A program made the translations under genes and the position numbers. From NCBI GenBank assembly GCA_965208125.1, contig OZ242320.1, forward strand, positions 416,001 through 480,000: DNA of 64,000 nucleotides, given 5' to 3'. This DNA is from Candidatus Latescibacterota bacterium. GTDB lineage: Bacteria; Latescibacterota; UBA2968. Each line of letters opens with the position of its first letter. Position 1 is the stretch's first letter. Below are positions 32,165 through 57,365 of the stretch, in pieces. Below the pieces are notes generated by a model. That model did no database searches. It was not told the origin of the DNA and was given only the letters and a program-made list of their open reading frames with translations.

Positions 32165-32173
32165 AAGAGAAAC

Positions 32174-33778
32174 CTAAACACCCGTCTTGAGCACATGGCG
32201 TTGCAAGCCGGGAATGTGAATATCCTTTACGTAAACGGGCCAATCTATGCGCGAAATATCACAATTAAAAATCTCTTTATCTTCTGCATCCATACTGTCA
32301 AACAACTGATTCATATTGTCGTTTTGAAACACGCAATCCAGAGAAATATAAGAACCGTAAATATCGGTAAGCGACAGCGTATTTTCCAAAGTGGCATTCA
32401 AAATCGACAAATGGCGTTTGTGCTTTGAAACATCAACCAGCGGCACCAAATTCAGTGCTCGTTGCAAAATTTTGAGTGGCAACTGATACTTATAGCGCAA
32501 CTTTCGACGAAATTGTGACAGCGTCGGATAGGTCCACCGCGTTACCGCAATGGGGTTGCCATTGCGATCGTGCATTGGATTGTTCACAAAATACTCGTAC
32601 ACATACTGAACGACCTCACCCACCGTGACCGGATTTTTTGCACTTGTTGTCACATGATAAACCTTCAAATCGGCATTTGCACGGATGGAAGGCAAAACAC
32701 CGATAATCACATTGATAATAATATCCACGGGAATAACGTCTAAAACCGCTTCTGGACGCGCAGGAAAATCATTCAAACGCCCCTTGCCGTAGTGTACGAT
32801 AAGTGGATCGGCCACTTTTAGTCCCTCCAGCCATCCCGGTTCTGGATCGGACAAACTGCTCTCAATAATAGAAGGGCGTACGATCACGGTTGGCAAATCA
32901 CCCCGAATCTTGGCAACCATCTGCTCACCCATGGCCTTGGTAAAAGAATAACTGTCGTGCCAGCCCAACTCTCGTCCGCGCTTTATGCCCCGTGCCACCA
33001 TCCGTTCCCGCACCCAACGCTGGCGCAAAGCCTCCAACTGGTGTTCCCGCCGATGCGCTGTAACGCGCTTGCCCCGATCCTGCCGGTCCAGCAACCGCGT
33101 AAATTCCGCAAAGCGCTCGGGGCTTCGCGACGCCGCCTCTACTTCGTGGCTATACGCCAGAATAGCTTCAACTTCCGAATCCAGACTATAATCGGGCGCG
33201 CGACCATTTTCCATCTGTTGTGCCACCGTTTGATCGGGTACGGGCGCGTCTTCAGAAATGATCCTCTTTTGTCGTCCATTGACATAAGCCGTCGAAACAT
33301 GCACCAGCACAGCATCTCGACACGCTTTGGCAAATTCGACAACGCGCTTGGCTCCAAGTGTATTTTGCGCCAGAGCCAGATCCAGTGGTGCATCAAAAAC
33401 CACATTGGCCGCGCTGTTAATCACAACATCGACTTCACGGGTCAACCGCGCATATGTCTCCTCGTCCATGCCGAGGTGGTCTTGTGTCAAATCGCTCGGC
33501 ACTGCAATGACCTTTTCGCGCATCACAGCGTCAAAACGATTCCCGAGTTCTGCGCGCAATCGCGCAAAAGCACTGGATTGCAAAATCTCCCTTTGCAGTC
33601 GGTCTTCGGCACTAATGGGCTTGCCCCCTCCCCGACTTTGAGGCCGCACCATGAGATAAATGCGCCCAATATCTGGCGCTTGGCAAAGGATTTTTCCCAC
33701 CAATCCCTTGGCCAAAAAACCGGTTGCACCCGTAATAAAAAGAACTTTGTGGTTCAAAAATGGAATGACAACACTCAT
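32174..33778 (-). CDS. Alcohol-forming fatty acyl-CoA/ACP reductase (FAR, NAD_binding_4 + Sterile domain)
   Basis: ITGATGFLAK, HVSTAYV, YSFTKAMGE, IVRPSII, PEPGW and DVIPVD motifs; C-terminal FNCDISRIDW. Confidence 0.92.
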   Translation of the reverse strand: MSVVIPFLNHKVLFITGATGFLAKGLVGKILCQAPDIGRIYLMVRPQSRGGGKPISAEDRLQREILQSSAFARLRAELGNRFDAVMREKVIAVPSDLTQDHLGMDEETYARLTREVDVVINSAANVVFDAPLDLALAQNTLGAKRVVEFAKACRDAVLVHVSTAYVNGRQKRIISEDAPVPDQTVAQQMENGRAPDYSLDSEVEAILAYSHEVEAASRSPERFAEFTRLLDRQDRGKRVTAHRREHQLEALRQRWVRERMVARGIKRGRELGWHDSYSFTKAMGEQMVAKIRGDLPTVIVRPSIIESSLSDPEPGWLEGLKVADPLIVHYGKGRLNDFPARPEAVLDVIPVDIIINVIIGVLPSIRANADLKVYHVTTSAKNPVTVGEVVQYVYEYFVNNPMHDRNGNPIAVTRWTYPTLSQFRRKLRYKYQLPLKILQRALNLVPLVDVSKHKRHLSILNATLENTLSLTDIYGSYISLDCVFQNDNMNQLFDSMDAEDKEIFNCDISRIDWPVYVKDIHIPGLQRHVLKTGV

Positions 33779-38227: not shown

Positions 38228-39478
38228 TTGAACAAACAACGCAGAGTGGTCATCACCGGCATGGGCACACTTGCCCCCAATGGCAATACCACAAAAAGCT
38301 ATTGGGAAGCATTGTGCAATGGACAAACAGGCGTTGGCCCCATAACAAAATTTGACGCCTCTGATTTCCGCGTGCAATTTGCAGCCGAAATCAAAAACTT
38401 TGAACCAGAACACTTTGGTATTGATCGTCGCAGCCAGCGGCGCATGGATCTCTTTACCCAATACGCCATTGCATCATCTGTTCAAGCCGTAGAAAATGCA
38501 GGTCTCGATATCAGTAATGAACAGCCCGAACGCATCGGAGTTGTATTTGGCTCGGGCATTGGCGGCATCCAAACCTTTGAGGATCAGCACGAAGCCTATC
38601 GCAAAGATGGTCCACGACGCATCAGTCCGCTTTTTGTGCCCATGATGATTCCCGACATGTCCGCAGGTCAAGTATCCATCCACCTCGGTGCCAAAGGACC
38701 CAACTATACCACCGTCACAGCTTGCGCCTCGGCAGCCCATGCCATTGGCAATGCAGCCCGCGAAATTTGGGACGACGAAGCCGATGTCATGATCACAGGG
38801 GGGGCAGAAGCCGCCATTACCCCAATGTCAGTCGGTGGATTTGCCGCGGCGCGAACGCTTTCAACCCGCAACGACGCCCCAACGCAAGCCAGCCGTCCCT
38901 TCGATGCAGACCGAGATGGATTTGTAATTGGAGAAGGTGCTGGCGGGCTTGTTCTGGAAGAACTCGAACGCGCAACACAACGGGGTGCCACTATCTATGC
39001 CGAAGTTGTAGGGACTGGCTACACTGGCGATGCCTATCACATTACCGGTATGGCACCTGGCGGCGAGGGGGGTGCCCGCGCTATGTGCCGCGCCATGCGA
39101 CAAGCGCAGATCAATCCCGGAGACGTGGCTTATATCAACGCACACGGCACATCAACACCTGTGGGCGATCCGGCAGAAACAGCCGCCATCAAATCCGTAT
39201 TTGGCGACTATGCCAAAAAGCTCGCCGTCAGTTCGACAAAATCCATGACCGGACATCTTTTGGGGGCTTCGGGTGCGATTGAAACCATCGCAGCAACCCT
39301 ATCAATTCACCACAATGTGGTACCGCCCACGATCAACTACGAAACACCCGATCCAGAATGCGACCTCGATTACGTGCCCAATGAAGCGCGGGAAATACCC
39401 GTTGAAATCGCCATCAGTAATTCCTTTGGCTTTGGTGGCCACAACGCAGTACTCATCCTGCGTAAGTTTCGCAACTAA
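38228..39478 (+). CDS. fabF: 3-oxoacyl-ACP synthase II
   Basis: RRVVITG, TACAS, INAHGTST, KSMTGHLLGA and NSFGFGG motifs; TTG start after GGAGG. Confidence 0.96.
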   Translation: MNKQRRVVITGMGTLAPNGNTTKSYWEALCNGQTGVGPITKFDASDFRVQFAAEIKNFEPEHFGIDRRSQRRMDLFTQYAIASSVQAVENAGLDISNEQPERIGVVFGSGIGGIQTFEDQHEAYRKDGPRRISPLFVPMMIPDMSAGQVSIHLGAKGPNYTTVTACASAAHAIGNAAREIWDDEADVMITGGAEAAITPMSVGGFAAARTLSTRNDAPTQASRPFDADRDGFVIGEGAGGLVLEELERATQRGATIYAEVVGTGYTGDAYHITGMAPGGEGGARAMCRAMRQAQINPGDVAYINAHGTSTPVGDPAETAAIKSVFGDYAKKLAVSSTKSMTGHLLGASGAIETIAATLSIHHNVVPPTINYETPDPECDLDYVPNEAREIPVEIAISNSFGFGGHNAVLILRKFRN

Positions 39479-39489
39479 CGAGACCATAC

Positions 39490-40266
39490 ATGCTACGTGA
39501 ATTGAAAGGGGGCGGTTTTATCCGGCTCGGAACTGTCTTACAAACGATCAGACGCTGGTCCGCAGGCAGCAGAGTGCGTTCCCAGGAAGAACTCCAACAC
39601 AAACTCGGTTACACCTTTTCCAATACCGCTTTACTCGAACAAGCCCTTAAACACCGGTCTCATGTTTACGTCACTCAGGAAGGCAGCATTGCTTCCAACG
39701 AACGCCTGGAATTTTTGGGCGATGCCGTGCTCGATCTCATTGTGACAGAACATCTCTACAATCGGTTCAAAAATAAAAGAGAAGGCGAACTCACACAGAT
39801 CAAATCTCTACTCGTCAGCAAGGTGGTCCTGGCCGAAAAAGGCCGCAAAATCCAACTTGGAGAATATCTCTATTTGAGCAAAGAAGAAATCTCATCTGGC
39901 GGGCGCCAACGCACCTCGATTATCGGCGATGCTTTTGAAGCGCTCTTAGGTGCGATTTACCTCGATGGCGGGCTTGAAGCTGCCCGCTCATTTGTCGAAC
40001 GCACAATTCTAACCGATGTTGAAGAAATCCTCGCCGACGGCAACTATCTCAACTTCAAAAGCCTGCTTCTCGAACACACACAAAGTACGGGACAGGGCCA
40101 TCCGCGATATCAGCCCATATCCGAAGAAGGCCCAGATCACCGAAAAATTTTCTTTATTGAAGTAACCCTTCAGGGCGATCGATTGGGCGAAGGACAGGGG
40201 CGCAGTAAAAAAGAAGCCCAACAGATGGCCGCAAAAGACGCGCTCAGACACCTGGGCCTACACTAA
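39490..40266 (+). CDS. rnc: Ribonuclease III
   Basis: NERLEFLGDAVL, DAFEALLGAIYLDGG and dsRBD (GRSKKEAQQ.AA) motifs; exact start uncertain. Confidence 0.95.
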   Translation: MLRELKGGGFIRLGTVLQTIRRWSAGSRVRSQEELQHKLGYTFSNTALLEQALKHRSHVYVTQEGSIASNERLEFLGDAVLDLIVTEHLYNRFKNKREGELTQIKSLLVSKVVLAEKGRKIQLGEYLYLSKEEISSGGRQRTSIIGDAFEALLGAIYLDGGLEAARSFVERTILTDVEEILADGNYLNFKSLLLEHTQSTGQGHPRYQPISEEGPDHRKIFFIEVTLQGDRLGEGQGRSKKEAQQMAAKDALRHLGLH

Positions 40267-40268
40267 CC

Positions 40269-41102
40269 GTGACACAATGCGATCCCTTCACATGGCGTTT
40301 CCTGAATACCCAACACGGAAACGCCTTTTTTAATATGGCAGTCGATGAAGCTCTCGTGCGCTCGATAGGTGCTCGGCCTGCATTTCGCGTTTACGGGTGG
40401 CAACCGCCCGCGGTCTCCTTTGGATATGCACAGCGCATCAGCCGCGAAGTCGATGCCCAAAAAGTTCGCAAGCGCGGTATCGACATTGTCCGTCGGCCCA
40501 CCGGTGGTCGCGCCGTCTTGCACTGGAACGAACTGACCTACAGCGTTATCTGCCCTGCCGACAATCCCGTTATGGGGGGCAATATCAACGAAGCCTATCG
40601 CAGAATCAGCGAGGGCCTTTTGGCGGGTATTCGCGCTCTCGGTATTGATGCGACCTTTGAATCCCGCCGCCAGACGCAACCCTCACCGCGCGGCAAAGAA
40701 CTCACCTCGCCCTGTTTTACCAGCACAGCGCAATACGAAGTCAAATTCAAGGGACGCAAACTCATCGGTAGCGCGCAACAGCGCATCGGCACAATGCTCT
40801 TGCAGCACGGGTCTCTCCTACTCGGCCCAGAGCACAAACAAATCGTCGATCTTCTGCCCATCGACAAACCCGGCCTGAAAAAGCGTTTTGCACGCGACCT
40901 CGACCGCCACACCACCTCGCTCTCTGAAGCCCTTGCATCCCCCATCGATTTTGATACAGTGGCTACCGCCATCCGACAAGGCATTCAAAAGACCTTTAAC
41001 ATCCAACTTGTTGAAGCCACACTCAGCAAAACCGAAATCGCCGAAACCCAACGCCTCATCAACGAGAAATACGCAACGCATGAATGGAATGACAAGTATT
41101 GA
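40269..41102 (+). CDS. Lipoate-protein ligase A family protein (LipM-like octanoyltransferase)
   Basis: NMAVDEAL, VRRPTGGRAVLH, PCF, KLIGSAQ and LQHGSL motifs. Confidence 0.9.
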   Translation: MTQCDPFTWRFLNTQHGNAFFNMAVDEALVRSIGARPAFRVYGWQPPAVSFGYAQRISREVDAQKVRKRGIDIVRRPTGGRAVLHWNELTYSVICPADNPVMGGNINEAYRRISEGLLAGIRALGIDATFESRRQTQPSPRGKELTSPCFTSTAQYEVKFKGRKLIGSAQQRIGTMLLQHGSLLLGPEHKQIVDLLPIDKPGLKKRFARDLDRHTTSLSEALASPIDFDTVATAIRQGIQKTFNIQLVEATLSKTEIAETQRLINEKYATHEWNDKY

Positions 41103-41511
41103 ATCTTCAAAGATCTGGACCTCACATCCCTTGCGCGAAGAGCCTTTGGCAAAATCTGTTTTACTCGTACTCATCATCCTGGGCGTCGCGGCTATTGTCG
41201 GTGTGAGCTTTCAAAGCATCACCTTCGCCTTTCTTGCACTCGTATTGCTCACCGCGGCGATGTCCCGTTATTTTTTTATAACGCACTATGCTATTGACAC
41301 TCACGGTTTTACCATTTCACATATCGGTATGCACAGGCAGTATTTGTGGACAAATTTTCGCCGCGCCGCAATCCATCCCGACGGCGTCTTCTTAAGTCCT
41401 TTTGCCAAACCGCATCGTCTCGACACATTTCGCGGTCAATTCCTGCGCTCGAAAAATCCCTCAGAGATCTACCATGTCGTCCAAAGACACATCAATATTG
41501 ATCCGGCTTAA
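41089..41511 (+). CDS. Hypothetical membrane protein (two TM segments plus small soluble domain)
   Basis: Overlaps the ligase stop; hydrophobic hairpin, then GVFLSPF..PHRLDTFRG. Confidence 0.7.
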   Translation: MTSIESSKIWTSHPLREEPLAKSVLLVLIILGVAAIVGVSFQSITFAFLALVLLTAAMSRYFFITHYAIDTHGFTISHIGMHRQYLWTNFRRAAIHPDGVFLSPFAKPHRLDTFRGQFLRSKNPSEIYHVVQRHINIDPA

Positions 41512-41827
41512 GAATTACTGCGCCCATGCCTTTGCCGTCTCCCCACCCGAAAGTGCCATCACCGAAGAAGACGAAATTCTCGCCGAAAAAGCCGCCGCCT
41601 TCATCGTGAGACGCAAACTCACAGCGCCAGCCATTATGTTACTTGAAACCGGGCGACCCTTTAACTATATTGGCAGCCAACTTTTGACTTTTTTATCGCC
41701 CTTCGTATCTATCATCTTTTCCTCAACAGCTGAGTTTGATCGCTTCACGCGCTTTCTGGAAAAACGGGAAAGCATTCCCTGCCTCATTCGTCACATTGAA
41801 ACCCTGGAAAACAAAAACCATGGATAA
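41474..41827 (+). CDS. Hypothetical protein of the GlmL-like cluster
   Basis: IVRRKLTAPAIMLLETGRPFNYIGSQ; overlaps both neighbours. Confidence 0.7.
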   Translation: MSSKDTSILIRLKNYCAHAFAVSPPESAITEEDEILAEKAAAFIVRRKLTAPAIMLLETGRPFNYIGSQLLTFLSPFVSIIFSSTAEFDRFTRFLEKRESIPCLIRHIETLENKNHG

Positions 41828-43607
41828 ACTCGACGTTATCATCGCTACCGACTGCGGCAGCACCACGACCAAAGCCATCCTCATAGAAAAAAAGGGCGAT
41901 GTCTATCGCCAGACCTATCGGGGCGAAGCACCTACCACAGTTGAAGCCCCCTACGAAGACGTCACGCGCGGCGTGCTCAACGCCATTCAAGAAGTCGAAG
42001 AACTCTCCGGCAGACAAATTCTCGACGGCGAAACCATCATCACACCCGCACGGGATAATCGCGGAGTTGACATCTACATTTCTACCAGCAGTGCAGGCGG
42101 CGGCCTGCAAATGATGGTCGGCGGCGTCATTCAGGCCATGACCGGCGAAAGCGCGCAGCGCTGCGCCCTCGGCGCAGGCGCAATCGTCATGGACATTCTC
42201 GCATCCAACGACGGGCGGCAGCCCCACGAAAAAATCGAACGCATACGCCAGTTGCGCCCCGATATGGTGCTCCTTTCGGGAGGCACAGATGGCGGCACCA
42301 TTTCGCACGTTGTCGAACTGGCCGAATTTATTTCGGCAGCCGACCCCAAACCGCGATTTGGATCGGGATACCAACTGCCCGTTATTTACGCCGGAAACAA
42401 AGATGCCGCGCAGGAAATTGAACGTACCCTGGGCGACAAAACAGCCCTCACCGTCACGGAAAACATCCGCCCCACGCTCGAAGAAGAAAACCTCGGACCT
42501 GCCCGCCATGTGATCCACGACCTCTTTCTCGAACACGTCATGGCGCAAGCACCTGGCTACCGGAAACTCATCTCATGGACAGGCGCGCCCATCATGCCCA
42601 CGCCCGGCGCAGTTGGCCTCATGATGCAAACCGCATCCAAACAACAAAATATCAATGTCGTGGGCGTTGACATAGGCGGTGCCACCACCGACGTATTCAG
42701 CGTCTTTGACGATATCTTCAACCGCACGGTATCTGCCAATCTCGGCATGTCCTACAGCGTATCCAACGTACTCGCCGAAGCGGGCCTCGACGATGTCATG
42801 CGCTGGGTACCTTTCAAAATCGACGAAGCAGACCTGCGCGACCGCATCAAAAACAAAATGATCCGCCCCACCACAATTCCACAAATGCTCGAAGAACTTC
42901 AGGTCGAACAGGCCATTGCCCGCGAAGCCCTGCGCCTGGCCTTTGTCCAGCACCGCGCATTGGCCGTGGGTCTCAAAGGCGTACAGGCCGAGCGTACCCT
43001 ATCCGATGTATTCGACCAATCCGCAGGCGGCGAAAGCCTCATCAAAATGCGCGACCTCGATCTCCTCGTAGGAAGCGGCGGCGTTCTATCTCACGCCCCG
43101 CGTCGAATGCAAACAGCCGCCATGCTCATCGACGCCTTCCAGCCCGAAGGCATCACGCGTCTCGCCGTTGACAGCATCTTTATGATGCCACACCTCGGCG
43201 TACTCTCATCGGTCAACGAAATCGCTGCCACTCAGGTTTTTGAACGCGACTGCCTCATCTACCTCGGCACCTGCATTGCACCCATCGCCCAAGGCAAAAT
43301 AGGCGCATCCTGTGCACAATACGAAATCGACCTTCCCGGCGGAACCCAATCGGGCACACTCAACATCGGCGATCTTCTACACTTCTCCCTCGAAGCCGAT
43401 CGAGAAGCACACCTCACCTTGCACCCCGAGCGCAACACAGACGCAGGTGCCGGATCGGGCCGAGAACTGAACATCACAGTCAAGGGGGGTACCGCCGGGC
43501 TAATCCTCGACGGACGCGGTCGCCCCATTGTATTTGCCGAAAATCAATCCGAACGCGCCGATCAAATAAGCCGGTGGAGCGAGACCCTCGACCTCTATCC
43601 CCGGTAA
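41820..43607 (+). CDS. Glutamate mutase L (GlmL)-like ASKHA-fold ATPase
   Basis: TDCGSTTTK, SSAGGGL, LSGGTDGG, MPTPGAV, VDIGGATTDVFS and RTVSANLGMSYS motifs. Confidence 0.88.
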   Translation: MDKLDVIIATDCGSTTTKAILIEKKGDVYRQTYRGEAPTTVEAPYEDVTRGVLNAIQEVEELSGRQILDGETIITPARDNRGVDIYISTSSAGGGLQMMVGGVIQAMTGESAQRCALGAGAIVMDILASNDGRQPHEKIERIRQLRPDMVLLSGGTDGGTISHVVELAEFISAADPKPRFGSGYQLPVIYAGNKDAAQEIERTLGDKTALTVTENIRPTLEEENLGPARHVIHDLFLEHVMAQAPGYRKLISWTGAPIMPTPGAVGLMMQTASKQQNINVVGVDIGGATTDVFSVFDDIFNRTVSANLGMSYSVSNVLAEAGLDDVMRWVPFKIDEADLRDRIKNKMIRPTTIPQMLEELQVEQAIAREALRLAFVQHRALAVGLKGVQAERTLSDVFDQSAGGESLIKMRDLDLLVGSGGVLSHAPRRMQTAAMLIDAFQPEGITRLAVDSIFMMPHLGVLSSVNEIAATQVFERDCLIYLGTCIAPIAQGKIGASCAQYEIDLPGGTQSGTLNIGDLLHFSLEADREAHLTLHPERNTDAGAGSGRELNITVKGGTAGLILDGRGRPIVFAENQSERADQISRWSETLDLYPR

Positions 43608-43693
43608 GAGAAAGGCCCTGATTTAATTTATTTTTCTTGTAAAGTACCCCTCGCATTGTATATTCCGTTATCCTTAACCCCAGGTATTACCCT

Positions 43694-44812
43694 ATGGCAC
43701 ACGCATACACACCCGGTCTTCGCGTTACCCCACAGACCCTTCTTCAACGCCAGCGCCAACTCCCCCTCAAAGGTGAGGTCGTCGTATCACAAGGCGATAG
43801 CGTAACGCGCGATCAAGTCGTTGCACGCACGCACCTGCCCGGCAACGTCACCACCCTCAACCTGGTCAACATCTTGAGTTGCACGCCAGAAGAACTGCCC
43901 AATTACCTGCTCAAACGCGAAGGCGACCCCGTCGAAGCCGACGAACCCATTGCCGAAACCCGCCCCTTCATCAAATGGTTCAAAACCACCGTTAAAGCAC
44001 CTATTAGTGGCACCCTCGAAAGCATCTCCAAAATCACCGGACAGGTCATCTTTCGCGCGCCCCCCCGCCCCGTTCAGGTACAGGCATACATAGATGGCAA
44101 CGTGACCGAAATCCTGCCCGAAGAAGGCGTCATTGTCGAAACCACAGGTGCATTTGTACAGGGCATCTTTGGCATAGGCGGTGAAACCTGGGGACCTCTG
44201 CACGTCATCTCCGAAGAGCCAGATCAAATTTTAACCCCCGACCAAATCGACGACTCGTGCGCGGGTAAAATCGCCGTAGGCGGCAACCTTCTCACACTCG
44301 ACGTAATTGACAAAGCGCGGGAAAGCGGCGCCGTTGGCATCATTGGGGGCGGCATCCGCGACGCCGATTTGCGCGACCTGCTCGGTTACGACCTCGGCGT
44401 AGCTATCACCGGCACCGAGAATATTGGCCTCACCGTCATCGTCACCGAAGGCTTTGGCCCCATTGCAATGGCGCACAAAACCTTTGACATACTGAGCGAA
44501 AACAACGGCAAAGAAGCCTCTATCTCGGGTGCCACCCAGATTCGCGCCGGGGTTTTGCGTCCCGAAATCATCATCCCGGAATCCAGCAGCCACGAACAAA
44601 CCGAAGAATCCGATCATCCGGGCCTCATCGAAGGGGCACTCTTGCGCGTGATTCGCGCACCCTATTTTGGTCAGGTAGGCAAAGTCACGGCACTACCACC
44701 CGAATTGCAAACAGTCGAATCCGAAACCCATGTGCGCGTACTCGAAGTAGAATTTGACAATGGCGACCGCGCCACTGTCCCGCGCGCCAACGTCGAACTC
44801 ATCCAAGAGTAA
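43694..44812 (+). CDS. Hypothetical protein with barrel-sandwich (lipoyl/biotinyl-like) motifs and a C-terminal KOW-like domain
   Basis: GEVVVSQGDSV..DQVVA; KREGDPVEADEPIAE...VKAPISGTLESI; VQGIFGIGGE; LRVIRAPYFGQVGKV...VPRANVE. Confidence 0.75.
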   Translation: MAHAYTPGLRVTPQTLLQRQRQLPLKGEVVVSQGDSVTRDQVVARTHLPGNVTTLNLVNILSCTPEELPNYLLKREGDPVEADEPIAETRPFIKWFKTTVKAPISGTLESISKITGQVIFRAPPRPVQVQAYIDGNVTEILPEEGVIVETTGAFVQGIFGIGGETWGPLHVISEEPDQILTPDQIDDSCAGKIAVGGNLLTLDVIDKARESGAVGIIGGGIRDADLRDLLGYDLGVAITGTENIGLTVIVTEGFGPIAMAHKTFDILSENNGKEASISGATQIRAGVLRPEIIIPESSSHEQTEESDHPGLIEGALLRVIRAPYFGQVGKVTALPPELQTVESETHVRVLEVEFDNGDRATVPRANVELIQE

Positions 44813-44835
44813 ACGACTCCATCGGGAGATTGCGT

Positions 44836-46044
44836 ATGAGATATTTTTTAACTTGCATCACACTCGTGCTCTGCGCGGCACAGGTATATGCACAACAACC
44901 CACCGGTGTCAAAGCCGAAGACACCCCCAACGACTCGGGAGGCAGCATCACCGTCATCTGGGATTACCCAGAACCCCTCGAGGGAGTCGAACAAATCACA
45001 TACACAATTTCAGTCGGCGAATCTGAAAATGGGCCTTTTCATGGCGCCAAGTACAATGCAGCTAACCTGCAATCCACCGATCCGGGCACTTTTGGGCATG
45101 GCGAAGAAACATTCCACAAGTTTTTTGCCAGAATCTCCGAATATGTTGATCCCGCCGACTCATCTAAAAGAATCGCCATTGAAAATAGTAAAACTTATTA
45201 CGTACAGGTCATCGCCCACCTCCCTTCTGGCGAATCATTTCCCTCGGCAATCGCAAGCGCAGAAGCGTATGAAAATCTCTTCAACCGGACCAAAACCAAC
45301 AACTTCGTTATCGGCACGATCTTCTCTCTCATCATTTTAGGCGGCATTCTCCTCGCCCAAAAACGCGAACTCTTCATTCGGCGCATCGCTGGCCTCGAAG
45401 CCCTTGACGAAGCCCTCGGTCGCGCCACGGAAATGGGTAAACCCGTACTCTTTGTACATGGGTTGCATGACATGGACAGTGTTTCCACTATTGCGGCAAT
45501 CAATGTTCTCTCCCGCGTTGCCCACCGTACAGCCGAATTTAATACCGAATTGCGCGTTGCCAATCGCTACTCAGTTGTCATGGCTGTGAGTCAAGAGGTT
45601 GTCAAAGAATCCTATCTCAATGCAGGCCGTCCCGACGCATATTCCGACGACATGGTCTTTCTGGCAGCTACAGAACAATTCAGCTATGCCGCAGCCCTTG
45701 ACGGCATGATGGTGCGCGACAGACCAGCCACCAATATCATGATGGGATCCTTCTATGCCGAATCGCTCTTGCTGGCAGAAACAGGTGCTTCAATCAATGC
45801 TATTCAGATCGCGGGCACTGACTCCTACACCCAACTGCCCTTTTTCATCACTACCTGCGACTATACGCTCATGGGCGAAGAACTCTATGCGGCGAGTGCG
45901 TATCTCGCCCGAGAACCCAAACTGTTGGGCAGCCTTAAAGGGCAGGACATCGGCAAAGCAGTGCTCTTGATAGCCATGATTTTGGGTACACTTCTGGCGA
46001 GTTTTGAAATTCAAACACTCACGCATATTTTTACCGCATATTAA
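44836..46044 (+). CDS. DUF6754-like membrane protein with an N-terminal fibronectin-III-like domain
   Basis: Signal peptide; DTPNDSGGSITVIW; IRRIAGLEALDEALGRATEMGKP, AESLLLAETG and QLPFFITTCDYTLMGEELYAASAYL motifs. Confidence 0.8.
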   Translation: MRYFLTCITLVLCAAQVYAQQPTGVKAEDTPNDSGGSITVIWDYPEPLEGVEQITYTISVGESENGPFHGAKYNAANLQSTDPGTFGHGEETFHKFFARISEYVDPADSSKRIAIENSKTYYVQVIAHLPSGESFPSAIASAEAYENLFNRTKTNNFVIGTIFSLIILGGILLAQKRELFIRRIAGLEALDEALGRATEMGKPVLFVHGLHDMDSVSTIAAINVLSRVAHRTAEFNTELRVANRYSVVMAVSQEVVKESYLNAGRPDAYSDDMVFLAATEQFSYAAALDGMMVRDRPATNIMMGSFYAESLLLAETGASINAIQIAGTDSYTQLPFFITTCDYTLMGEELYAASAYLAREPKLLGSLKGQDIGKAVLLIAMILGTLLASFEIQTLTHIFTAY

Positions 46045-46059
46045 GCAGGGGATTCTTTT

Positions 46060-46716
46060 ATGCTTTTTTTACGACGTACATTGCCGCTGATCATCGCCTT
46101 TGTTCTGGGTATGATTGGTATTCTCGTTTACTACATTCCACACAGCGGCGCCCAAAATCTTGAGCAGGACTTGACAACCTGGAATCGAATTATCGCGGCC
46201 TTCGCTCTGGTGTTGGGAATCTACAGTCTGATGCGCTTGCACTGGAGTCGTGTTCAGCGGCAACAAGCCGGATGGGGATATAGTTTCCTCGTATTTGTGG
46301 GCTTTGTGCTTATGTCCATCTTCGCAATCTACAACAATGGACAAGGTCCTTTCACCTCCCAGGTACTTGATTCGGGTCCTTTTGACTGGATGTTTAAGTA
46401 TGTACAGGTACCAGCCGATGCCACCATGTTCTCTATTCTCGCGTTTTTCATCGCATCTGCTGCCTATCGCACCTTTCGCGCACGCACGCCAGAAGCGGCA
46501 ATCCTGCTCGTATCGGCTATTATCGTGATGATCGGCCGCGTGCCCATTGGCGCATCAATTTACCAGGAGCTTCCCCAAATTGCCCAATGGATGATGGATG
46601 TGCCCAATCTGGCAGCCAAGCGCGGCATTTTGCTCGGCGTCAGCCTTGGTGCTGTCGCCACGGCATTACGCATCATTTTTGGCATCGAACGCTCTTATCT
46701 CGGCGGAGGTGAATAA
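46060..46716 (+). CDS. Hypothetical multi-pass membrane protein
   Basis: About 6 hydrophobic segments; ATMFSILAFFIASAAYRTFRAR; LRIIFGIERSYLG. Confidence 0.8.
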   Translation: MLFLRRTLPLIIAFVLGMIGILVYYIPHSGAQNLEQDLTTWNRIIAAFALVLGIYSLMRLHWSRVQRQQAGWGYSFLVFVGFVLMSIFAIYNNGQGPFTSQVLDSGPFDWMFKYVQVPADATMFSILAFFIASAAYRTFRARTPEAAILLVSAIIVMIGRVPIGASIYQELPQIAQWMMDVPNLAAKRGILLGVSLGAVATALRIIFGIERSYLGGGE

Positions 46717-47552
46717 TGATAATGAAAGAATTTTTGCTCAATATCGACCGCCGTATCATCTTTGTCTTTGTCGCGCTTGGTATCATCATTCCCTCGTTGG
46801 CTGCCATACGCCTGCCTATCCACATCACGGAAGATGTCAAAGCGATTTACGACACGATCGAAGAAGTGGCAGCAAAAAACGGCACCATTCTCATCTCCTT
46901 TGACTACGGACCCGGATCCATGCCCGAAGTACAGCCCATGGCCATTGCAGTTTTGCGCCACTGTTTCAAGCGCAACGTCAAAGTAGTTGGGATGTCACAC
47001 TGGGTAGATGCTGTTGGTCTTGCACAAGAAGCATTTGATACCACATCAAAAGAATTTGGTGCACAATACGGTGAAGATTATACGTATCTGGGTTATAAAA
47101 CGGGCTTCGGTTCTCTGGTCATCAACATGGGCAACGACTTTCACAATGCATTCCAAAAAGATCTGCAAGGTAGCGATACGACCGAATTACCTGTCACCAA
47201 AAACATAAAGGGATTGGCGGACTTCGACTATGTGATCTGTCTGGCAGCGGGCAACACACCAGATGGTGTCTGGATACCCTATGGACAAGAACGCTACAAA
47301 TTTAAATTTGGCATTGGCTGTACCGCTGTTATGGCACCCGATCAATATCCATATCTGCAATCGGGCCAAATGAACGGCATGATGGGCGGATTGGCCGGTG
47401 CCGCCGAATACGAGACTCTGATTGAAACATCGGGCAAAGCCACCGCGGGTATGGGTGCCCAATCCGTTGTACATCTCATCATCATCGCCTTCATCATCCT
47501 GGGCAATGTGATGTACTTCCTCTATGGACGACAGAGAGGAGGTGCCCAGTGA
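46716..47552 (+). CDS. Hypothetical membrane-anchored protein (TM - alpha/beta domain - TM)
   Basis: DRRIIF; SFDYGPGSMPEVQPM; YGEDYTYLGY; YPYLQSGQMNGMMGGLAGAAEYE; coupled to the previous gene (TAATG). Confidence 0.8.
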   Translation: MIMKEFLLNIDRRIIFVFVALGIIIPSLAAIRLPIHITEDVKAIYDTIEEVAAKNGTILISFDYGPGSMPEVQPMAIAVLRHCFKRNVKVVGMSHWVDAVGLAQEAFDTTSKEFGAQYGEDYTYLGYKTGFGSLVINMGNDFHNAFQKDLQGSDTTELPVTKNIKGLADFDYVICLAAGNTPDGVWIPYGQERYKFKFGIGCTAVMAPDQYPYLQSGQMNGMMGGLAGAAEYETLIETSGKATAGMGAQSVVHLIIIAFIILGNVMYFLYGRQRGGAQ

Positions 47553-48280
47553 GTCGCGATCATATAATTTTTATCACTTTTTTAGTCGTCTTTGCCGCCA
47601 TCAATATCTACCTCTTTGGCTGGGACAGACTCTCCGCGGATTGGACCGGCTTTGGTATATTTATCGCGGCTGGCATCACCCTATCGCTTTACAGTTTTCT
47701 CTATAAGGACAACCCTCTCTTCAAATTTGCCGAAAATCTCTACGTGGGTGTGGCAGCCGCATACTCCCTCACCCAAATTTGGTACACCGTGCTTTGGGCC
47801 GATGTGGTGAATCCCCTCTATGAACTTAGCAGCGAAAGCATGGGCAATTTGTGGCTCATCGTGCCCACATTGCTTGGCCTCTTCATGCTCACCCAACTCT
47901 CCTCGGCAACATTCAGTTGGCTCAGTCGTATCGCATTCGCATTTGTAGTCGGTCTGGGAGCGGGATTAACCATCCCACGTACTATTGCGGCCAATTTGCT
48001 GGCACAAATGGAACCGACCATGCAACCTATAGCAGCCTCATGGGAAGGATTAAATCTGCTCATTATTCTTGTCGGCGTCGTTACAGTACTCGTGTATTTC
48101 TTCTACTCTGTCGAACACACCGGTCCCGTGGGCGTGGCGTCCAAAATTGGTATCTGGTTTCTCATGATTTCATTTGGCGCATCATTTGGCTACACCATCA
48201 TGGCGCGTCTCTCACTGCTGATTGGGCGCGTCGGGTTCTTGCTCGAAGACTGGCTCGTGCTCGAATTGCCTCTATTTTGA
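47549..48280 (+). CDS. Hypothetical multi-pass membrane protein
   Basis: YSFLYKDNPLFKFAENLYVGV; GIWFLMISFGASFGYTIMARLSLLIGR; GTGA overlap with the previous gene. Confidence 0.8.
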   Translation: MSRDHIIFITFLVVFAAINIYLFGWDRLSADWTGFGIFIAAGITLSLYSFLYKDNPLFKFAENLYVGVAAAYSLTQIWYTVLWADVVNPLYELSSESMGNLWLIVPTLLGLFMLTQLSSATFSWLSRIAFAFVVGLGAGLTIPRTIAANLLAQMEPTMQPIAASWEGLNLLIILVGVVTVLVYFFYSVEHTGPVGVASKIGIWFLMISFGASFGYTIMARLSLLIGRVGFLLEDWLVLELPLF

Positions 48281-48363
48281 TTTGAGGAGAAGTGCGTGTT
48301 CATTCGCTCATTTCAAAAAAACGGGAACGTTCAAACCCTTATAGAAGTCCAAAGAAACATTAC

Positions 48364-49326
48364 ATGCCCAATTCCGTGCTGACAGTTGACAACCTCCAAA
48401 CGCATTTTCATACAGACAGCGGAACAGCGAGGGCGGTAGATGGCGTATCATTCACACTCAACAAGGGCGAAACGTATGGCCTTGTTGGTGAATCGGGGTG
48501 CGGAAAAAGTGTCACTTCGCTGTCAATCATGCGATTGGTACCTCATCCTGGCCGCATTGAAAGTGGGCATATTTTTTTTCAGGACCGTGACCTGGTATCC
48601 CTTTCGGATACCGAAATGCGCGACATACGCGGCAATGACATTGCCATGATCTTTCAGGAACCCATGACCAGCCTCAACCCGGTTTACACCTGTGGGTTCC
48701 AGATTGACGAAGCCGTGAGGCGGCATCAGGGATTAGAAAAAACCGAAGCGCGAAAAAAAACAGTTGAAATGCTCCACCTCGTGGGCCTGCCCGATCCCGA
48801 ACAACGCGCAAACGAATACCCGCACCAGTTATCTGGCGGACAACGCCAGCGCGTAATGATCGCCATGGCCCTCTCGTGCAACCCCAAAGTGCTAATTGCG
48901 GACGAACCCACAACAGCACTCGATGTCACTATTCAGGCGCAAATCCTGGACCTGTTGCGCGACTTGCAGCAACAACTCGGTATGGCCGTCCTGCTCATCA
49001 CACACGATTTAGGAGTTATTGCCGAAGCCGCCGATCAGGTCGCGGTCATGTACGCAGGCAAAATTGTAGAAATCGGTCCGGCAGACGCGATCTTTCACAA
49101 CCCCAGGCATCCCTACACGCAGGGATTACTCGCATCAGTACCCCGTCTGGATATCGCGAACAAGCGCCTCAGAACCATTCCGGGCACGGTGCCCGAAGCC
49201 ACGCAATTCCCATCGGGATGTCGATTTGCAGATCGATGTGAAAAGGTCGATTCAATTTGCAGGGAAACCACACCGCAACTGCAAACAATTGACAGCGGTC
49301 ACCAGACCGCGTGTTGGATGGCATAA
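48364..49326 (+). CDS. oppD: Oligopeptide/dipeptide ABC transporter ATP-binding subunit
   Basis: [38 protein letters not shown] and GCRFADRC motifs. Confidence 0.9.
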
Positions 49327-49338
49327 AGGCGAGAAATA

Positions 49339-50289
49339 GTGCTTCTTCAAGTTCAAAATCTAAAAAAATACTACCCCATTTCTCAGGGACTTTGGGGGCG
49401 CAACGCCGGACATGTCAAAGCAGTAGATGACGTGAGCTTCAATATCTCTCCCGGCGAAACCCTCGGCCTGGTCGGAGAATCGGGATGCGGAAAAACCACG
49501 ACAGGACGCGCCATTTTACGCCTTATCGATGCGACATCAGGCACCGTGCGATTCAAAAATACTGACATTCTCTCCCTGGGGAAAAAACAACTTCGAACAC
49601 TGCGCCGGCACATGCAAATCATCTTTCAGGACCCTTATGGATCGCTAAACCCCCGCCTCACCATCGGCGGCATCCTCTCGGAACCCCTGAAAATCCACGG
49701 CGACAAAACAAAAGATCGAGTCGCCGACCTGCTCAACACCGTGGGCTTATCTCCCGACGTCGCGCGCCGATATCCACATGAATTTTCCGGCGGACAGCGA
49801 CAGCGCATTGGCATTGCCCGCGCATTGGCCGTAAAACCGCAATTCATTGTCGCAGACGAACCCGTATCTGCACTCGACGTATCGATTCAGGCACAAATCG
49901 TAAACTTGCTCCAGGATTTACAGACTCAGTTTGGTCTCGCCTATCTCTTTATCGCACACGACTTGAGCGTGGTCAAACACATCTCCAACCGCGTGGCAGT
50001 CATGTATCTGGGCAAAATTGTCGAACTGGCCGAAAGCCAGGAACTCTACGACAATCCGCAGCATCCCTATACGCGCGCATTGCTCTCATCAATCCCCATA
50101 CCCGATCCGCGCGTCAGGGGATCGCGCACCAGTTTAACAGGCGATGTGCCCAGCCCGGTCAACGTACCTTCGGGCTGTGCATTTCATCCGCGCTGTCCCG
50201 AAGCAACGGCGGACTGCGCCCACCGCAACCCCGAACTCTTAGACATTGAACCCGGCCACAGCGTGGCCTGTATCTTGCGACACAATTAA
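49339..50289 (+). CDS. oppF: Oligopeptide/dipeptide ABC transporter ATP-binding subunit
   Basis: [39 protein letters not shown] and GCAFHPRC motifs. Confidence 0.9.
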
Positions 50290-50334: not shown

Positions 50335-53300
50335 GTGAAGGTCTTAAGAACATTAACGTTGCTGTGTCTCACCGGTCTCATATCCCACACCGCCCAGGCA
50401 CAGCCCCCCTCTTTAGGTCCCGCCAAAGCCATTGGGGTTGACCTTGCCAATACCCCGTTGAACCGTCCGTCGCCCGACCAAAAAAGCTACACTTATTGGA
50501 AACCCGAAACAGCCGACGGCTTCTTCCCATCGCTTTTGGGACTGCGGACGGCTGGCGCTCAAATGATTCGCACCAGATATTTCAACATCTACTTCTCTAC
50601 AGCCGAAAAAACTGCCCGGCAAATTGCCGACTTCTGCGATGAGGTTCTATCGAATCTCATGCGCCATTATCCCACCTTTGTCGATCGCATTGCGCCCATC
50701 CACGTCGTCGTTGACGATCAGGCGGATTATTTGGGCAATGCCTTTGCCGTGTACAGCGCCAATTACATCCACTTTTGGACCAACCCCATCGACTGGGAAA
50801 TCCGCGGTACCAGTGACTGGGTACGCAATGTTTTTGTCCACGAACTCGCCCACATCGTAACCCTGAAAGCCGCCTATAAGGGCCTGCCATTCCAAATTGG
50901 CATAGTCAACGCCTCTCGCGCCAATGAAAATCCCGATTTTAGCTTCACGCTTGGCTTGTACCACCTCGCCATGAATTCGGGTTTTGCCGAAGGCATCTCG
51001 CAATACGAAGCCACCGAATATGGCGACGATCGCTGGGACACACACCGCGATATGCTCCTGCGCATGGCTGCGCTCGAAAATGATCTGCTTTCCCTGCCCA
51101 GCATGGGGCAACTCGGCGGCAAAGGCAATTTCCACGGTGAAATGGTCTATAATCAGGGATTTGCCATGCTCAACTACATCGGCGAACGCTTTAGTCCCAC
51201 TGTCGTCAGACAGATCTTTGAACACAGGCCCATTATCAACTTCAACTCCTCGCTGAAAAAAGCCACTGGCGTATCGGCCAAACAACTCTACCGCGACTGG
51301 AAAGCGCATATTGTAGAACAATACGGCACCGTTCAAAGCGACATCCAGGAAGCCGGCGAACGCGAGGGCGAATTGGTCGTCGATAGAGGCAGTTTGGACT
51401 ATCATCCCGTCTATTCTCCGCAAGGCGATAAGCTGGGCTTTATCTCCAACGACGACAGCGACTATTTCATCACCGAACTCAAAGTGATGGACCTGGCAAC
51501 AAATAAAGTCACAAAAATATCCGACCGCGTCGATAACCGCTTTGTCTGGACCGCCAGCGGCGACAGCCTGATGTACATCAAAGCCGTAGGCGCGCGTTGG
51601 GACATCTTCACCTATGACATCAAAACGAAAAAAGAAACCCGCGTCACCGTAGGTCTGCGCGGCAAAGACCCCACTCTCTCACCCGATGGCAAACAAATCG
51701 CCTTTGTAACCATGAGGGATGGCACGGCGAATATCGGTCTTGTAAACACCGACGGCACCGATGTGCGATATCTCACACACAACAACGACGCCACACAGTA
51801 TTTTGGCCCGAAATGGTCGCCCGACGGCAAACACCTGCTCTTCAGCGTATTCCGCACGGGCGAAGACCGCGACATTGCCATCATAGACGTGAATGCAACA
51901 ACCTGGGAAAAGAAAAAAGGCAGGCGCTCACTGGAAAAAAAAGAAGTTGACACACAACTCGACAGCCTCCAGCAGGCAAAAGCCGACAGCCTCAAGGCGT
52001 TTCCCGACAGCCTCGCCTATGCCAACAATGCCAACTTCAAAGCCATTGTACACTCCACAGCCGACGAACGCGATCCCATATGGCTACCCGATGGCAGTGG
52101 ATTTATCTTCAGTTCAGACCGCACGGGCATCTTCAATCTCTACACCCACGACATGGCGACCGGCGAACAAAAGCAACTGACCAATGTTGTGGGCGGCGCG
52201 TTTTTGCCCACTATCTCTCCCGACGCAAAAGACGTGATCTACGCGGGGTATCACGCGGCAAACTACAACCTCTATCGCATCCCCCTGTCCGAGGCCGTCG
52301 CCGTTGATCCCCCCGAGGGTATTGCGCGAGACTATGCTGAAATTTACACCGGCAAATCCATCACCGACCTTCACGACATCGGGCGGTATTCCACGCGCCT
52401 CATCTCTTACGGAATCACACCCATCGCATTGCTGGGTCCCACATTTATCGGCAACCGATTTGGCCTGGATCAAATCAGCGCGGGTGTTCAATGGGCCTGG
52501 GGCGATCTGCTCGGCAGCGACGTTTTTGTAACCACCGCCCTGATCGGCAAAAACTTCAGACGACAACAAGACTTCAACTCGGAATTCGCCTTCTACTACC
52601 AGAACAGCCTCACCCCCATTCTATCTGAACAAAGCACCTATGTCCCCCGCATCTTCTTTGGAGGCAGCAGGCAAACCATCAACAGCATCGTGGATTTGGG
52701 CACCGTCCAAACCGTTCGCGATACACTCAGCGGCACAATGATCACCACAAATGACGAAGGACAACAGGTCCTGATCCCCAATGTCACGCAGCACTTAGAC
52801 CTCACGGTTACGGAAGAAGACGATTTTAAGGATGTATTCTCCGATTTTACGGTGGGCGCCGAAATGGGGGTAGGCCGCGGACACTATTTTAGCCTGGCCT
52901 ATGGCTACCGCAAGTACTCCGAAAACTTGCACGCCGTTCAGGTCCTCCACGACAGCTCTCGCGTCTTTCAGACCAATTTGAGTACTGGTGCTGTTGAAGA
53001 CATCACCGACCAGCTCCCCGGACCGGGCTATGCATCGCAGGAAACTGTTCTCGACGATTTTCTCTACAAAGAACTCGACTTCTTCAAAAGTAACGAATGG
53101 ATGGGTGGTTGGAGCTACATCACCCTCAAACCCGCAACCGACCTCTACATCAACCCATCGGGCGGTCGCGCATTGTCCTTCCGCTACCGGCGCATCAATG
53201 CAACCGTGATAGATACACTGGCCCGTACGCCAGATGTGAACGAAGATTTTGTCCCGGATCCAATCGGCGAAGACCTGTCACCTGCATTTTTCCGAGGCGA

Positions 53301-53910
53301 TAAAGTCAACGTGGGTTTCAACGAATACATCGCCTCCTTCAATGAATTTATCCCGCTCGTCGGCCGCTCTACACTTGCCCTCCAGGTCTTTGGAGCCTAC
53401 AAAGACAGCTATGTCAAAGAAGTACAACAAGAAGGCGGCACATTCGAAGGCGTATTCTATTACCCCCTGCGCTATTATCTCGGTGGTCTGGGCACCTTGC
53501 GCGGCTATCCATATTTCACAATCGCAGGCGGCAAAGCCCTCTTTGGTCGCACCACGCTGACCCTGCCGATCTTTAAGCGCGTTGGCGCGGAACTGCCGCC
53601 TCTCTTTTTTGACAAAATTTACGCCTCGCTCTTCTTTGAATTTGGCGGCGTATCCAATGCCGCCAGCCTCGGCGATATTTTCGACGTAAATGAAGAAGTA
53701 CACAGTGGGCGATGGGACAAATTCAAAAACTCTTTCCTATTTGACTACGGCGCCGAAATCCGATTCCAGATATTTTCACATTACCGCTTACCCATGTTCG
53801 GCTATTTCATCGTCGCCCGTCCCACCAAACTCGAAGTCCCATCCCGCAACAACCCCGATATCATCGAAGAGGTCAGTGGGACGCGATTCTATTTTGGCCT
53901 GTCATTGTAA
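50335..53910 (+). CDS. Zinc-peptidase + PD40/TolB propeller + Omp85-like barrel protein (paralogue of 13947..16988)
   Basis: RGTSDWVRNVFVHELAH, FAEG, DRWDTHRDMLLR, PD40 repeats, LGGLGTLRGY; ends FYFGLSL. Confidence 0.8.
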   Translation: MKVLRTLTLLCLTGLISHTAQAQPPSLGPAKAIGVDLANTPLNRPSPDQKSYTYWKPETADGFFPSLLGLRTAGAQMIRTRYFNIYFSTAEKTARQIADFCDEVLSNLMRHYPTFVDRIAPIHVVVDDQADYLGNAFAVYSANYIHFWTNPIDWEIRGTSDWVRNVFVHELAHIVTLKAAYKGLPFQIGIVNASRANENPDFSFTLGLYHLAMNSGFAEGISQYEATEYGDDRWDTHRDMLLRMAALENDLLSLPSMGQLGGKGNFHGEMVYNQGFAMLNYIGERFSPTVVRQIFEHRPIINFNSSLKKATGVSAKQLYRDWKAHIVEQYGTVQSDIQEAGEREGELVVDRGSLDYHPVYSPQGDKLGFISNDDSDYFITELKVMDLATNKVTKISDRVDNRFVWTASGDSLMYIKAVGARWDIFTYDIKTKKETRVTVGLRGKDPTLSPDGKQIAFVTMRDGTANIGLVNTDGTDVRYLTHNNDATQYFGPKWSPDGKHLLFSVFRTGEDRDIAIIDVNATTWEKKKGRRSLEKKEVDTQLDSLQQAKADSLKAFPDSLAYANNANFKAIVHSTADERDPIWLPDGSGFIFSSDRTGIFNLYTHDMATGEQKQLTNVVGGAFLPTISPDAKDVIYAGYHAANYNLYRIPLSEAVAVDPPEGIARDYAEIYTGKSITDLHDIGRYSTRLISYGITPIALLGPTFIGNRFGLDQISAGVQWAWGDLLGSDVFVTTALIGKNFRRQQDFNSEFAFYYQNSLTPILSEQSTYVPRIFFGGSRQTINSIVDLGTVQTVRDTLSGTMITTNDEGQQVLIPNVTQHLDLTVTEEDDFKDVFSDFTVGAEMGVGRGHYFSLAYGYRKYSENLHAVQVLHDSSRVFQTNLSTGAVEDITDQLPGPGYASQETVLDDFLYKELDFFKSNEWMGGWSYITLKPATDLYINPSGGRALSFRYRRINATVIDTLARTPDVNEDFVPDPIGEDLSPAFFRGDKVNVGFNEYIASFNEFIPLVGRSTLALQVFGAYKDSYVKEVQQEGGTFEGVFYYPLRYYLGGLGTLRGYPYFTIAGGKALFGRTTLTLPIFKRVGAELPPLFFDKIYASLFFEFGGVSNAASLGDIFDVNEEVHSGRWDKFKNSFLFDYGAEIRFQIFSHYRLPMFGYFIVARPTKLEVPSRNNPDIIEEVSGTRFYFGLSL

Positions 53911-56589: not shown

Positions 56590-56606
56590 GAAAAAAGGAA
56601 AACACC

Positions 56607-57362: not shown

Positions 57363-57365
57363 AAA

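Follow-up and report, generated by a model that had tools for sequence, protein, structure and literature searches.

The window analysed here is a stretch of 64,000 nucleotides (nt) from a Candidatus Latescibacterota bacterium (positions 416,001 to 480,000 of contig OZ242320.1, assembly GCA_965208125.1), whose genome is a single 5.75-Mb contig of 96% completeness, the window lying at 0.416–0.480 Mb. It holds a conserved block of eight genes, s1, s2, a glmL-like gene, bsh372, a DUF6754 gene, tm218, p278 and tm243, of which the ATPase encoded by the glmL-like gene, its partner bsh372, a protein of 372 amino acids (aa), and the four membrane proteins encoded from DUF6754 to tm243 probably constitute an ATP-coupled membrane machine of a new kind. 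Named families exist for just two of the eight proteins, PF13941 and PF20539, the latter a domain of unknown function (DUF), and for none of the other six. No description of the system was found in the literature, in a search without most subscription journals, and it may thus be described elsewhere.

The initial annotation of this region reported nine co-oriented genes, and nine tightly packed open reading frames (ORFs) are indeed present on the + strand between positions 40269 and 48280. The gene string is unbroken at both ends, being preceded in the same direction by fabH-fabD-fabG-acpP-fabF-rnc and followed by oppD-oppF, with gaps of 2–12 nt; in a simple sequence scan no terminator-like site was found in the intergenic gaps of the block, and promoter-like sites were not in excess (15 vs 15.6 expected from shuffling). 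The limits of the system were therefore set by comparison with other genomes and not by the window. About 100 loci (104) were compared, including 20 from across the phylum Latescibacterota and 79 from a pattern scan in which the DUF6754 alignment was used against one genome per prokaryote species. In the 20 phylum loci, the order duf6754-tm218-p278-tm243 is found in all 20, together with bsh372 in 18, the GlmL-like gene in 16, s2 in 14, s1 in 12 and the LplA-like gene, which is the first of the nine ORFs in the window, in 4; in several of them, 0.8–7 kb are inserted between the ATPase gene and bsh372. Among the loci with room downstream, the four-gene order holds in 69 of 70, and the sole exception (L075) is an artefact of ORF start calling, the order being the same when ORF ends are used. 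Where at least 4.2 kb of upstream sequence is available, s2-glmL-bsh372 lies directly upstream of the module in 39 of 62 loci and s1 in 17. The conserved unit is thus of eight genes, s1 to tm243, not nine.

The system is widespread. The pattern scan matched at least 633 stretches, at least 630 of which encode a relative, and the labels of the 79 loci taken from it include Latescibacterota, Brocadiaceae/Scalindua, Methylomirabilis, Phycisphaerae and other Planctomycetota, Nitrospirota (Nitrospira among them), WOR-3, Poribacteria, Edwardsbacteria, Stahlbacteria, BRC1, Eisenbacteria, Elusimicrobia and Ignavibacteria, as well as deltaproteobacterial and myxococcal bins. The recurrence in other genomes that the initial annotation proposed for this cluster is in this way confirmed for many bacterial phyla. 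Within the phylum, the three marker families were profiled in 168 species genomes, where DUF6754 is found in 143, bsh372 in 142 and PF13941 in 141. Each of the three is missing from the families f8 (0/1), f9 (0/2) and f10 (0/13), and each is present in 69 of the 76 genomes of f4. None of the listed genomes in which the three markers are only partly represented is more than 90% complete, and all but one of them (G063, 90%) are below 90%. The check proposed at the outset, that is the gene neighbourhood and phylogenetic profile of the GlmL-like and DUF6754 genes, gave a shared pattern of presence and absence and a fixed gene order.

The ATPase (positions 41820–43607; 595 aa from its ATG; PF13941, E 4.4e-126, 421.7 bits vs a cut-off of 27) is a long member of the GlmL/MutL family of ASKHA ATPases, with about 120 additional, beta-rich aa at its C-terminus. 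The loops DCGSTTTK (residues 11–18), DIGGATTD (284–291) and GSGGVLSH (418–425), which we take to be those of phosphate and adenosine binding, are at least 90% conserved in 60 sequences, and the long forms of different phyla in the same set are at least 55% identical (55–100%, mean 0.70). Its gene is followed by bsh372 (43694–44812), whose family comprises 3547 cluster representatives at E ≤ 0.001. Among the longer proteins that contain bsh372, 77 of 78 matches also contain PF13941, and most measure 950–1050 aa (roughly 1000 aa). In about 50 closer fusions 99–100% of bsh372 is covered, and the 16 sequences inspected share one layout, an N-terminal ATPase joined by a short linker to the conserved start of the partner. 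In a more distant class, of 950–990 aa, the middle-domain motifs TEGFG and TQIRAGVxRP are kept and the last domain is missing. Of the genomes that carry the module without s2-glmL-bsh372 beside it, five were checked, and bsh372 is found elsewhere in all five of them and a PF13941 gene in four. The fusions, the constant adjacency and the shared presence/absence pattern show that the ATPase and bsh372 act together as one cytoplasmic unit. Apparent ATPase-partner and partner-DUF6754 fusions derived from long open frames of high-GC genomes were set aside as artefacts, a stop codon being present between the genes in L039. Likewise, a single 707-aa record (P0122), in which the end of bsh372 is joined directly to the signal peptide of DUF6754 and its FN3 domain, was not counted and is probably a read-through or a sequencing error.

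An AlphaFold2 model of bsh372 (predicted local distance difference test, pLDDT, 86.3; predicted template modelling score, pTM, 0.74) consists of three domains. The first (residues about 10–150) is a barrel-sandwich hybrid, which bears out the barrel-sandwich motifs noticed earlier in the 372-aa sequence, and is matched by the N-termini of NqrA and RnfC (4u9o_A, 8a1u_A and 8ahx_C; Z 7.3–7.8, 64–65 residues aligned). The second (152–298) is a swivelling beta/beta/alpha domain, for which the best fold matches are Enzyme I (2wqd_A; Z 9.6, root-mean-square deviation 2.9, 107 residues aligned) and rifampin phosphotransferase (5hv1_A; Z 9.4), followed by RraA (3c8o_A; Z 9.0), the pyruvate kinase C-terminal domain (2e28_A; Z 8.5) and the small subunit of aconitase X (7cnr_B; Z 8.1). 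The third (310–372) is a KOW/SH3-like barrel. A sequence search of solved structures with profiles of bsh372, DUF6754 and the GlmL-like protein returned nothing below E 0.03 except KOW and FN3 hints.

The membrane module begins with the DUF6754 gene (44830 or 44836 to 46044; 404 or 402 aa; PF20539, E 1.9e-113, 378.3 bits over residues 148–401 vs a cut-off of 27), the ATG start at 44836 being in agreement with the 402-aa cluster form P0001. Its AlphaFold2 model (pLDDT 82.2) shows a signal peptide, an FN3 domain (22–148), a membrane helix, a Rossmann-like domain (186–360) and a second membrane helix. The FN3 domain, already proposed from the sequence, is confirmed by the model and matches many FN3 domains with Z of about 10, and the five-stranded Rossmann-like domain has generic matches to short-chain dehydrogenases/reductases (SDRs), sirtuins and KTN/RCK domains (Z 9.3–10.6). 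On the basis of hydropathy and of the positive-inside rule, the FN3 domain is predicted to be periplasmic and the Rossmann-like domain cytoplasmic. A DUF6754 homologue in the ESM Atlas returned DUF6754 clusters only. The following genes, tm218 (46060–46716; 218 aa) and, as the last of the four-gene module, tm243 (47549–48280; 243 aa), encode polytopic proteins with about six hydrophobic segments, assigned by hydropathy, and conserved motifs. Between them p278 (46716–47552; 278 aa) encodes, according to hydropathy and alignment, a membrane helix, an alpha/beta-like domain of about 215 aa, which is predicted to be periplasmic, and a further membrane helix.

Two small genes precede the ATPase gene. 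The first, s1 (41080–41511; 143 aa), overlaps the LplA-like gene by 23 nt and encodes an accessory membrane protein that starts with a hydrophobic hairpin and ends in a conserved domain of about 80 aa. The second, s2 (41474–41827; 117 aa; 38-nt overlap with s1), encodes a protein with one conserved hydrophobic or amphipathic stretch; it always comes before the ATPase gene, the start of which is overlapped by the s2 stop codon (8-nt overlap in the window). Neither s1 and s2 nor tm218, p278 and tm243 of the window have a Pfam or NCBIfam family, and Pfam scans were extended to 69 further members of these five families. No family was found for s1 (8 of 8 members), and no recurrent one for s2 (11 members; a single weak sub-threshold match to PTS_EIIA_2, E 0.024), tm218 (8 members; single weak sub-threshold matches only), p278 (32 of 32 members; no named look-alike cluster in the Atlas either) and tm243 (10 members; a single weak sub-threshold match to DUF3704, E 0.011). 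Comparison of the eight families with one another by hhalign gave no internal homology, with probabilities below 1% both for DUF6754 vs p278 and for tm218 vs tm243.

Two or three complete modules stand in tandem in eight loci, and in five tandem-module genomes, for which there is no completeness estimate, the DUF6754:bsh372 counts are 5:1, 5:1, 4:1, 2:1 and 5:0. Paralogous modules of one genome are 41–56% identical, that is, as far apart as orthologues of different phyla. Since a genome can have up to five diverged modules and a single partner gene, we infer for the soluble pair the role of an energy-coupling unit shared between modules. Conservation is highest in the ATPase (mean pairwise identity 0.70), followed by the cytoplasmic part of DUF6754 (0.65) and by the partner (0.56), and is lower in the membrane proteins (0.42–0.47) and lowest in the FN3 domain (0.27), a gradient which indicates that the cytoplasmic faces are constrained and that the outward-facing domain is free to vary.

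These observations can be accommodated in a mechanism in which the long GlmL-like ASKHA ATPase and bsh372 would constitute one ATP-using unit in the cytoplasm, and gene order and co-occurrence suggest that this unit works with the inner-membrane module of DUF6754, tm218, p278 and tm243. The pair would dock on the module, most plausibly on the cytoplasmic domain of DUF6754, since no other part of the module is both sizeable and cytoplasmic and none is better conserved, and the module would expose the FN3 and the alpha/beta domain to the periplasm. Binding or hydrolysis of ATP on the ASKHA fold may then move the swivel domain of the partner, and this movement may drive transport or conformational work across the membrane in modules that are specific for their substrates. 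That a shared cytoplasmic ATP-driven unit energises substrate-specific membrane modules is the explanation that we favour, although tentatively, as its chances appear to us slightly short of even. The broader proposal, that the ASKHA-fold motor represents a so far undescribed class of general energy-coupling unit serving a family of four-protein modules in many phyla, is more doubtful. Of the ATP-driven membrane complex suggested by the initial annotation, what stands is an ATP-binding cytoplasmic part linked to a membrane complex by co-occurrence, gene order and fusions.

Several points weigh against a shared energiser. To our knowledge, no ASKHA ATPase energises transport, and no membrane subunit resembles any known transporter family in Pfam, NCBIfam or the Atlas; the contact of the soluble pair with the membrane module is itself something that we infer. 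The fold matches of bsh372 are middling (Z 7–10), are common to unrelated families and concern the fold only. With the mobile domain of phosphoenolpyruvate (PEP) utilisers (PF00391), bsh372 shares the fold but neither sequence homology nor the catalytic histidine: hhalign of residues 140–305 (62 rows) against 11 PEP-utiliser domains of related genomes gave a probability of 0.2%, i.e., no homology, and besides H3 no histidine of bsh372 is at least 80% conserved. The N-terminal motif AHAYTPGL is near-invariant in free-standing partners, with His3 in 61 of 62; since this histidine is gone in three of the eight close fusions inspected (P0165, P0171 and P0172), phosphohistidine on His3 was rejected as a general mechanism and a phosphohistidine relay is unlikely. 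As to distribution, one WOR-3 genome, of only 1.4 Mb, has no PF13941 gene, and two Poribacteria hold the ATPase, the partner and the module at three separate places; these scattered loci, together with the many-to-one ratio of modules to partner, do fit a shared general energiser. Finally, G097 and G098 (91–93% complete, in 1–5 contigs) have none of the three markers and G096, of the same genus, has them all, so that the system is gained or lost as a unit and is dispensable.

The main rival differs from the shared energiser only in what the periplasmic domains do. Here, the membrane subunits would relay an ATP-driven movement from the cytoplasm to the FN3 and alpha/beta domains in the periplasm, and these would act mechanically on the envelope (assembly, extraction or remodelling), in the manner of MacB, LolCDE and FtsEX-type mechanotransmission. 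Such an envelope machine would account for the presence of two subunits with sizeable periplasmic domains anchored by membrane helices and for the variability of the FN3 domain, the most variable part of the system (0.27 identity), as expected for an outward contact; moreover, all the named hosts of the pattern scan are, we presume, diderm lineages. However, Pfam scans gave no similarity to FtsX or MacB, and no envelope gene is a recurrent neighbour in the 18 loci whose flanks were scanned. We regard this explanation as unlikely, even though it is the strongest of the alternatives.

Next comes a role of the system in lipoic-acid metabolism, either in lipoate or octanoate uptake or in supporting the assembly of lipoyl enzymes. 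The co-oriented cluster is immediately flanked by lipoate-related genes in three arrangements, and at least one such gene is found in 15 of 104 loci. In the first, lplA-s1 is found in part of the Latescibacterota, including the window; in the second, gcvPA-gcvPB-[cluster]-lplA is found in L079, L111 and L126, the last from Eisenbacteria; in the third, lipA lies upstream of s2 in the Nitrospirota loci L067, L083 and L105, directly in L067 and L105, with an E2 gene before lipA in L083 and L105. Such neighbours are more frequent than we would expect by chance, yet the pattern is a post hoc one, the three arrangements having been picked among many possible neighbour classes, and 89 of the 104 loci have no lipoate gene in the DNA covered. 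The ligase itself (40269–41102; 277 aa; PF21948, E 1.7e-35) consists of the catalytic domain only (PF21948 123.3 bits vs a cut-off of 27; TIGR00545 92.3 vs 280), and its sequence is compatible with a lipoyl(octanoyl) ligase or transferase, with LplA, LipM or LipL (amidotransferase) all being candidates. It is the only strong LplA-cat match in the window genome, and in the phylum it occurs in 156 of 168 genomes, including some that lack the system (f8 1/1, f9 2/2, f10 12/13, G097 and G098), whereas this query gave no match in f5, f6, f7 and f11, families that have the system. The ligase had been counted as a member of the system; this does not hold, as it adjoins the system in 4 of the 20 phylum loci and its distribution in the phylum does not follow it. 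As it is the only strong LplA-type gene and does not track the system, we read it as a housekeeping lipoyl or octanoyl transferase, adjacent by lineage-specific gene order. Considering also that the partner has no conserved lysine for lipoylation and that a machine of seven or eight genes seems large for cofactor uptake, a lipoic-acid role is improbable.

It is still less probable that the ATPase is actin-like or chaperone-like and builds a scaffold held at the membrane by the membrane proteins. An ASKHA fold with 0.70 mean identity across phyla and the small membrane proteins s1 and s2 encoded beside the ATPase would suit a scaffold, but the closest relatives of the family are GlmL and hydantoinase-type enzymes and not MreB, ParM or FtsA, and a fixed 1:1 fusion with a three-domain partner is better suited to an enzyme than to a filament.

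The explanation suggested by the database label, a reactivase of a B12-dependent or radical enzyme encoded elsewhere, finds some support in the membership of PF13941 and in the two B12-binding domains of the genome. Both domains, however, are encoded some 4 Mb away from the window (at 4.42 and 4.90 Mb), and GlmE (PF06368) has no match in the whole 5.75-Mb genome; the remark that no mutase is nearby holds. The long form also falls below the cut-off of every NCBIfam GlmL model (NF040745, 220.5 vs 475; NF040744, 201.7 vs 600; TIGR01319, 156.4 vs 204.05 bits), and it tracks DUF6754 and bsh372 instead. In two close relatives of the same order (G056 and G058), the B12 context belongs to a second PF13941 protein, a short one of 470 aa (531.9 bits), which is 30% identical to the long form and directly follows a 149-aa B12-binding protein. 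As had been argued from the sequence, the mutase-reactivase label does not explain the long form, given the lack of GlmE, the GlmL scores below cut-off and the B12 context held by the short GlmL. The database label "glutamate mutase L" is misleading for it, the system is independent of B12-dependent mutases, and a reactivase role can be considered hardly credible. As a separate observation, in G056 (L136, 6435–8293) and G058 (L137) the short GlmL gene is followed by a 619-aa ORF without a Pfam match at E 1e-5, and the B12-binding protein, the short GlmL and this ORF may form an unusual B12 mutase set.

Equally hard to credit is the second possibility of the initial annotation, carrier-dependent modification or export, taken to mean that the neighbouring ligase, whose gene overlaps s1, lipoylates the 372-aa protein: the barrel-sandwich fold and the weak matches of bsh372 to Biotin_lipoyl (PF00364; 21.2 bits vs a cut-off of 22.1) and RnfC_N (20.9 vs 25.6) speak for it, but both scores are just under the Pfam cut-offs, the ligase is a housekeeping copy, and the hairpin (positions 88–97) has no conserved lysine in 62 sequences (position 90 is K in 31, R in 23 and another residue in 8; position 94 is K in 45 and position 97 in 49), the only lysine at least 80% conserved being K74, outside the hairpin. 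Without a conserved lysine, bsh372 is not the lipoyl carrier that it was first taken for.

With regard to the surroundings of the block, contigs from close relatives, 88–99% identical to the window, span much of the region in four RNA-seq libraries from three studies, although such contigs are no proof of transcription. In one library (X17), to which the same caution applies, one contig covers positions 39400–43607, from rnc to the end of the ATPase gene, and a second covers 43693–48875, from bsh372 into oppD, except for a diverged stretch of 257 bases (47575–47831). Orphan ATP-binding cassette (ABC) ATPases of the oppD and oppF type are encoded at 48292–50289, 11 nt after tm243, and the window contains neither a permease nor a binding-protein gene of the Opp type; elsewhere the genome has two more oppDF pairs and six SBP_bac_5 genes. 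In 11 distinct Latescibacterota loci the module is followed by the oppDF pair, and in L039 the pair stands next to the module on the other strand; in L094 (BRC1) the pair comes after the module together with an SBP_bac_5 gene and without a permease gene, and in L061 one similar ATPase gene comes after it. Since the pair follows the module only in Latescibacterota, in L094 and partly in L061, OppD/OppF were set aside as the true energiser. Directly after oppF, a 1191-aa protein (50335–53910) has PD40 beta-propeller repeats and a weak Peptidase_MA_2 match.

Among the neighbours in other genomes, a Memo-like gene (PF01875) is found just after the module in 16 Nitrospirota loci (L067, L080, L081, L083, L087, L089–L092, L095, L098, L100, L105, L109, L112 and L116), and its products have an N-terminal extension of about 120–175 aa in the five loci scanned. 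In L061, an anammox-related locus, a PF01451 gene (low-molecular-weight phosphotyrosine phosphatase or ArsC-type; 5852–6259) lies directly upstream of s2. Further away in the window, a four-gene run on the – strand (27528–33778) encodes an SDR, a FAD-linked oxidase (614 aa), a 646-aa protein without a Pfam family and a fatty acyl reductase-type protein (NAD_binding_4 + Sterile), and may be a fatty alcohol or ether-lipid gene set. At 55021–60038, two sulfatases, a PhyH-type dioxygenase and an alpha-L-fucosidase are encoded in one string, as expected for the breakdown of sulfated fucose-rich glycans.

The relevance of the system derives from its distribution and conservation, with at least 630 species-representative genomes and an ATPase about 70% identical across phyla. 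According to record titles, its carriers include the environmentally important Nitrospira, anammox Brocadiaceae/Scalindua and Methylomirabilis, and the sponge-associated Poribacteria and Latescibacterota. If the soluble pair did energise the membrane modules, this would be a new energy-coupling principle in membrane biology, and under the broader proposal the ASKHA motor would join ABC, P-type, phosphotransferase (PTS) and ion-driven systems as a further way of powering primary active transport or work across the membrane. Even without the mechanism, a common annotation error is corrected and a clear eight-gene target is available for genetics and cryo-EM.

When compared with known systems, the ATPase is closest to GlmL/MutL and to the GlmL-related Or-4 of ornithine degradation (PF13941; NF040745, NF040744 and TIGR01319), with which it shares the Pfam family and the ASKHA fold. 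Its identity to the canonical short GlmL of a related genome is about 30% over the first 400 residues or so, but it is about 120 residues longer, stays under the NCBIfam cut-offs, has no mutase partner, is always paired or fused with the 372-aa partner and is tied to DUF6754 modules. As for the partner, its domain 1 resembles NqrA and RnfC, cytoplasmic subunits of Na+-NQR and Rnf, which have the same barrel-sandwich hybrid fold; in these complexes, too, a peripheral subunit is accompanied by small polytopic subunits and by a single-pass one that carries a periplasmic domain. The present system differs in that its four membrane proteins, when scanned, gave no Rnf or Nqr membrane family, flavin and Fe-S motifs are absent, and no cysteine is at least 90% conserved in tm218 or tm243.

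In its logic, the arrangement proposed here recalls the general proteins of the PTS (Enzyme I, HPr and EIIA), where one soluble unit likewise serves several diverged membrane modules. The middle domain of bsh372 shares its swivelling fold with the phosphohistidine domain of Enzyme I (Z 9.6), and EIIA-Glc belongs, we believe, to the same clan as its first domain, the barrel-sandwich hybrid. The resemblance does not extend to sequence homology (hhalign 0.2%) or to the catalytic histidine; moreover, the nucleotide-binding part is an ASKHA protein and not a PEP utiliser, and the membrane proteins are unlike EIIC. A similar architecture, with a cytoplasmic nucleotide-using unit, polytopic subunits, periplasmic domains and several membrane modules per energiser, is found in ABC and energy-coupling factor (ECF) transporters with shared ATPases and in MacB/FtsX-type mechanotransmission. 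By contrast, the core described here has no ABC ATPase, oppD/oppF being downstream only in some lineages, and its proteins have no similarity to the ABC, ECF or FtsX membrane families in Pfam scans.

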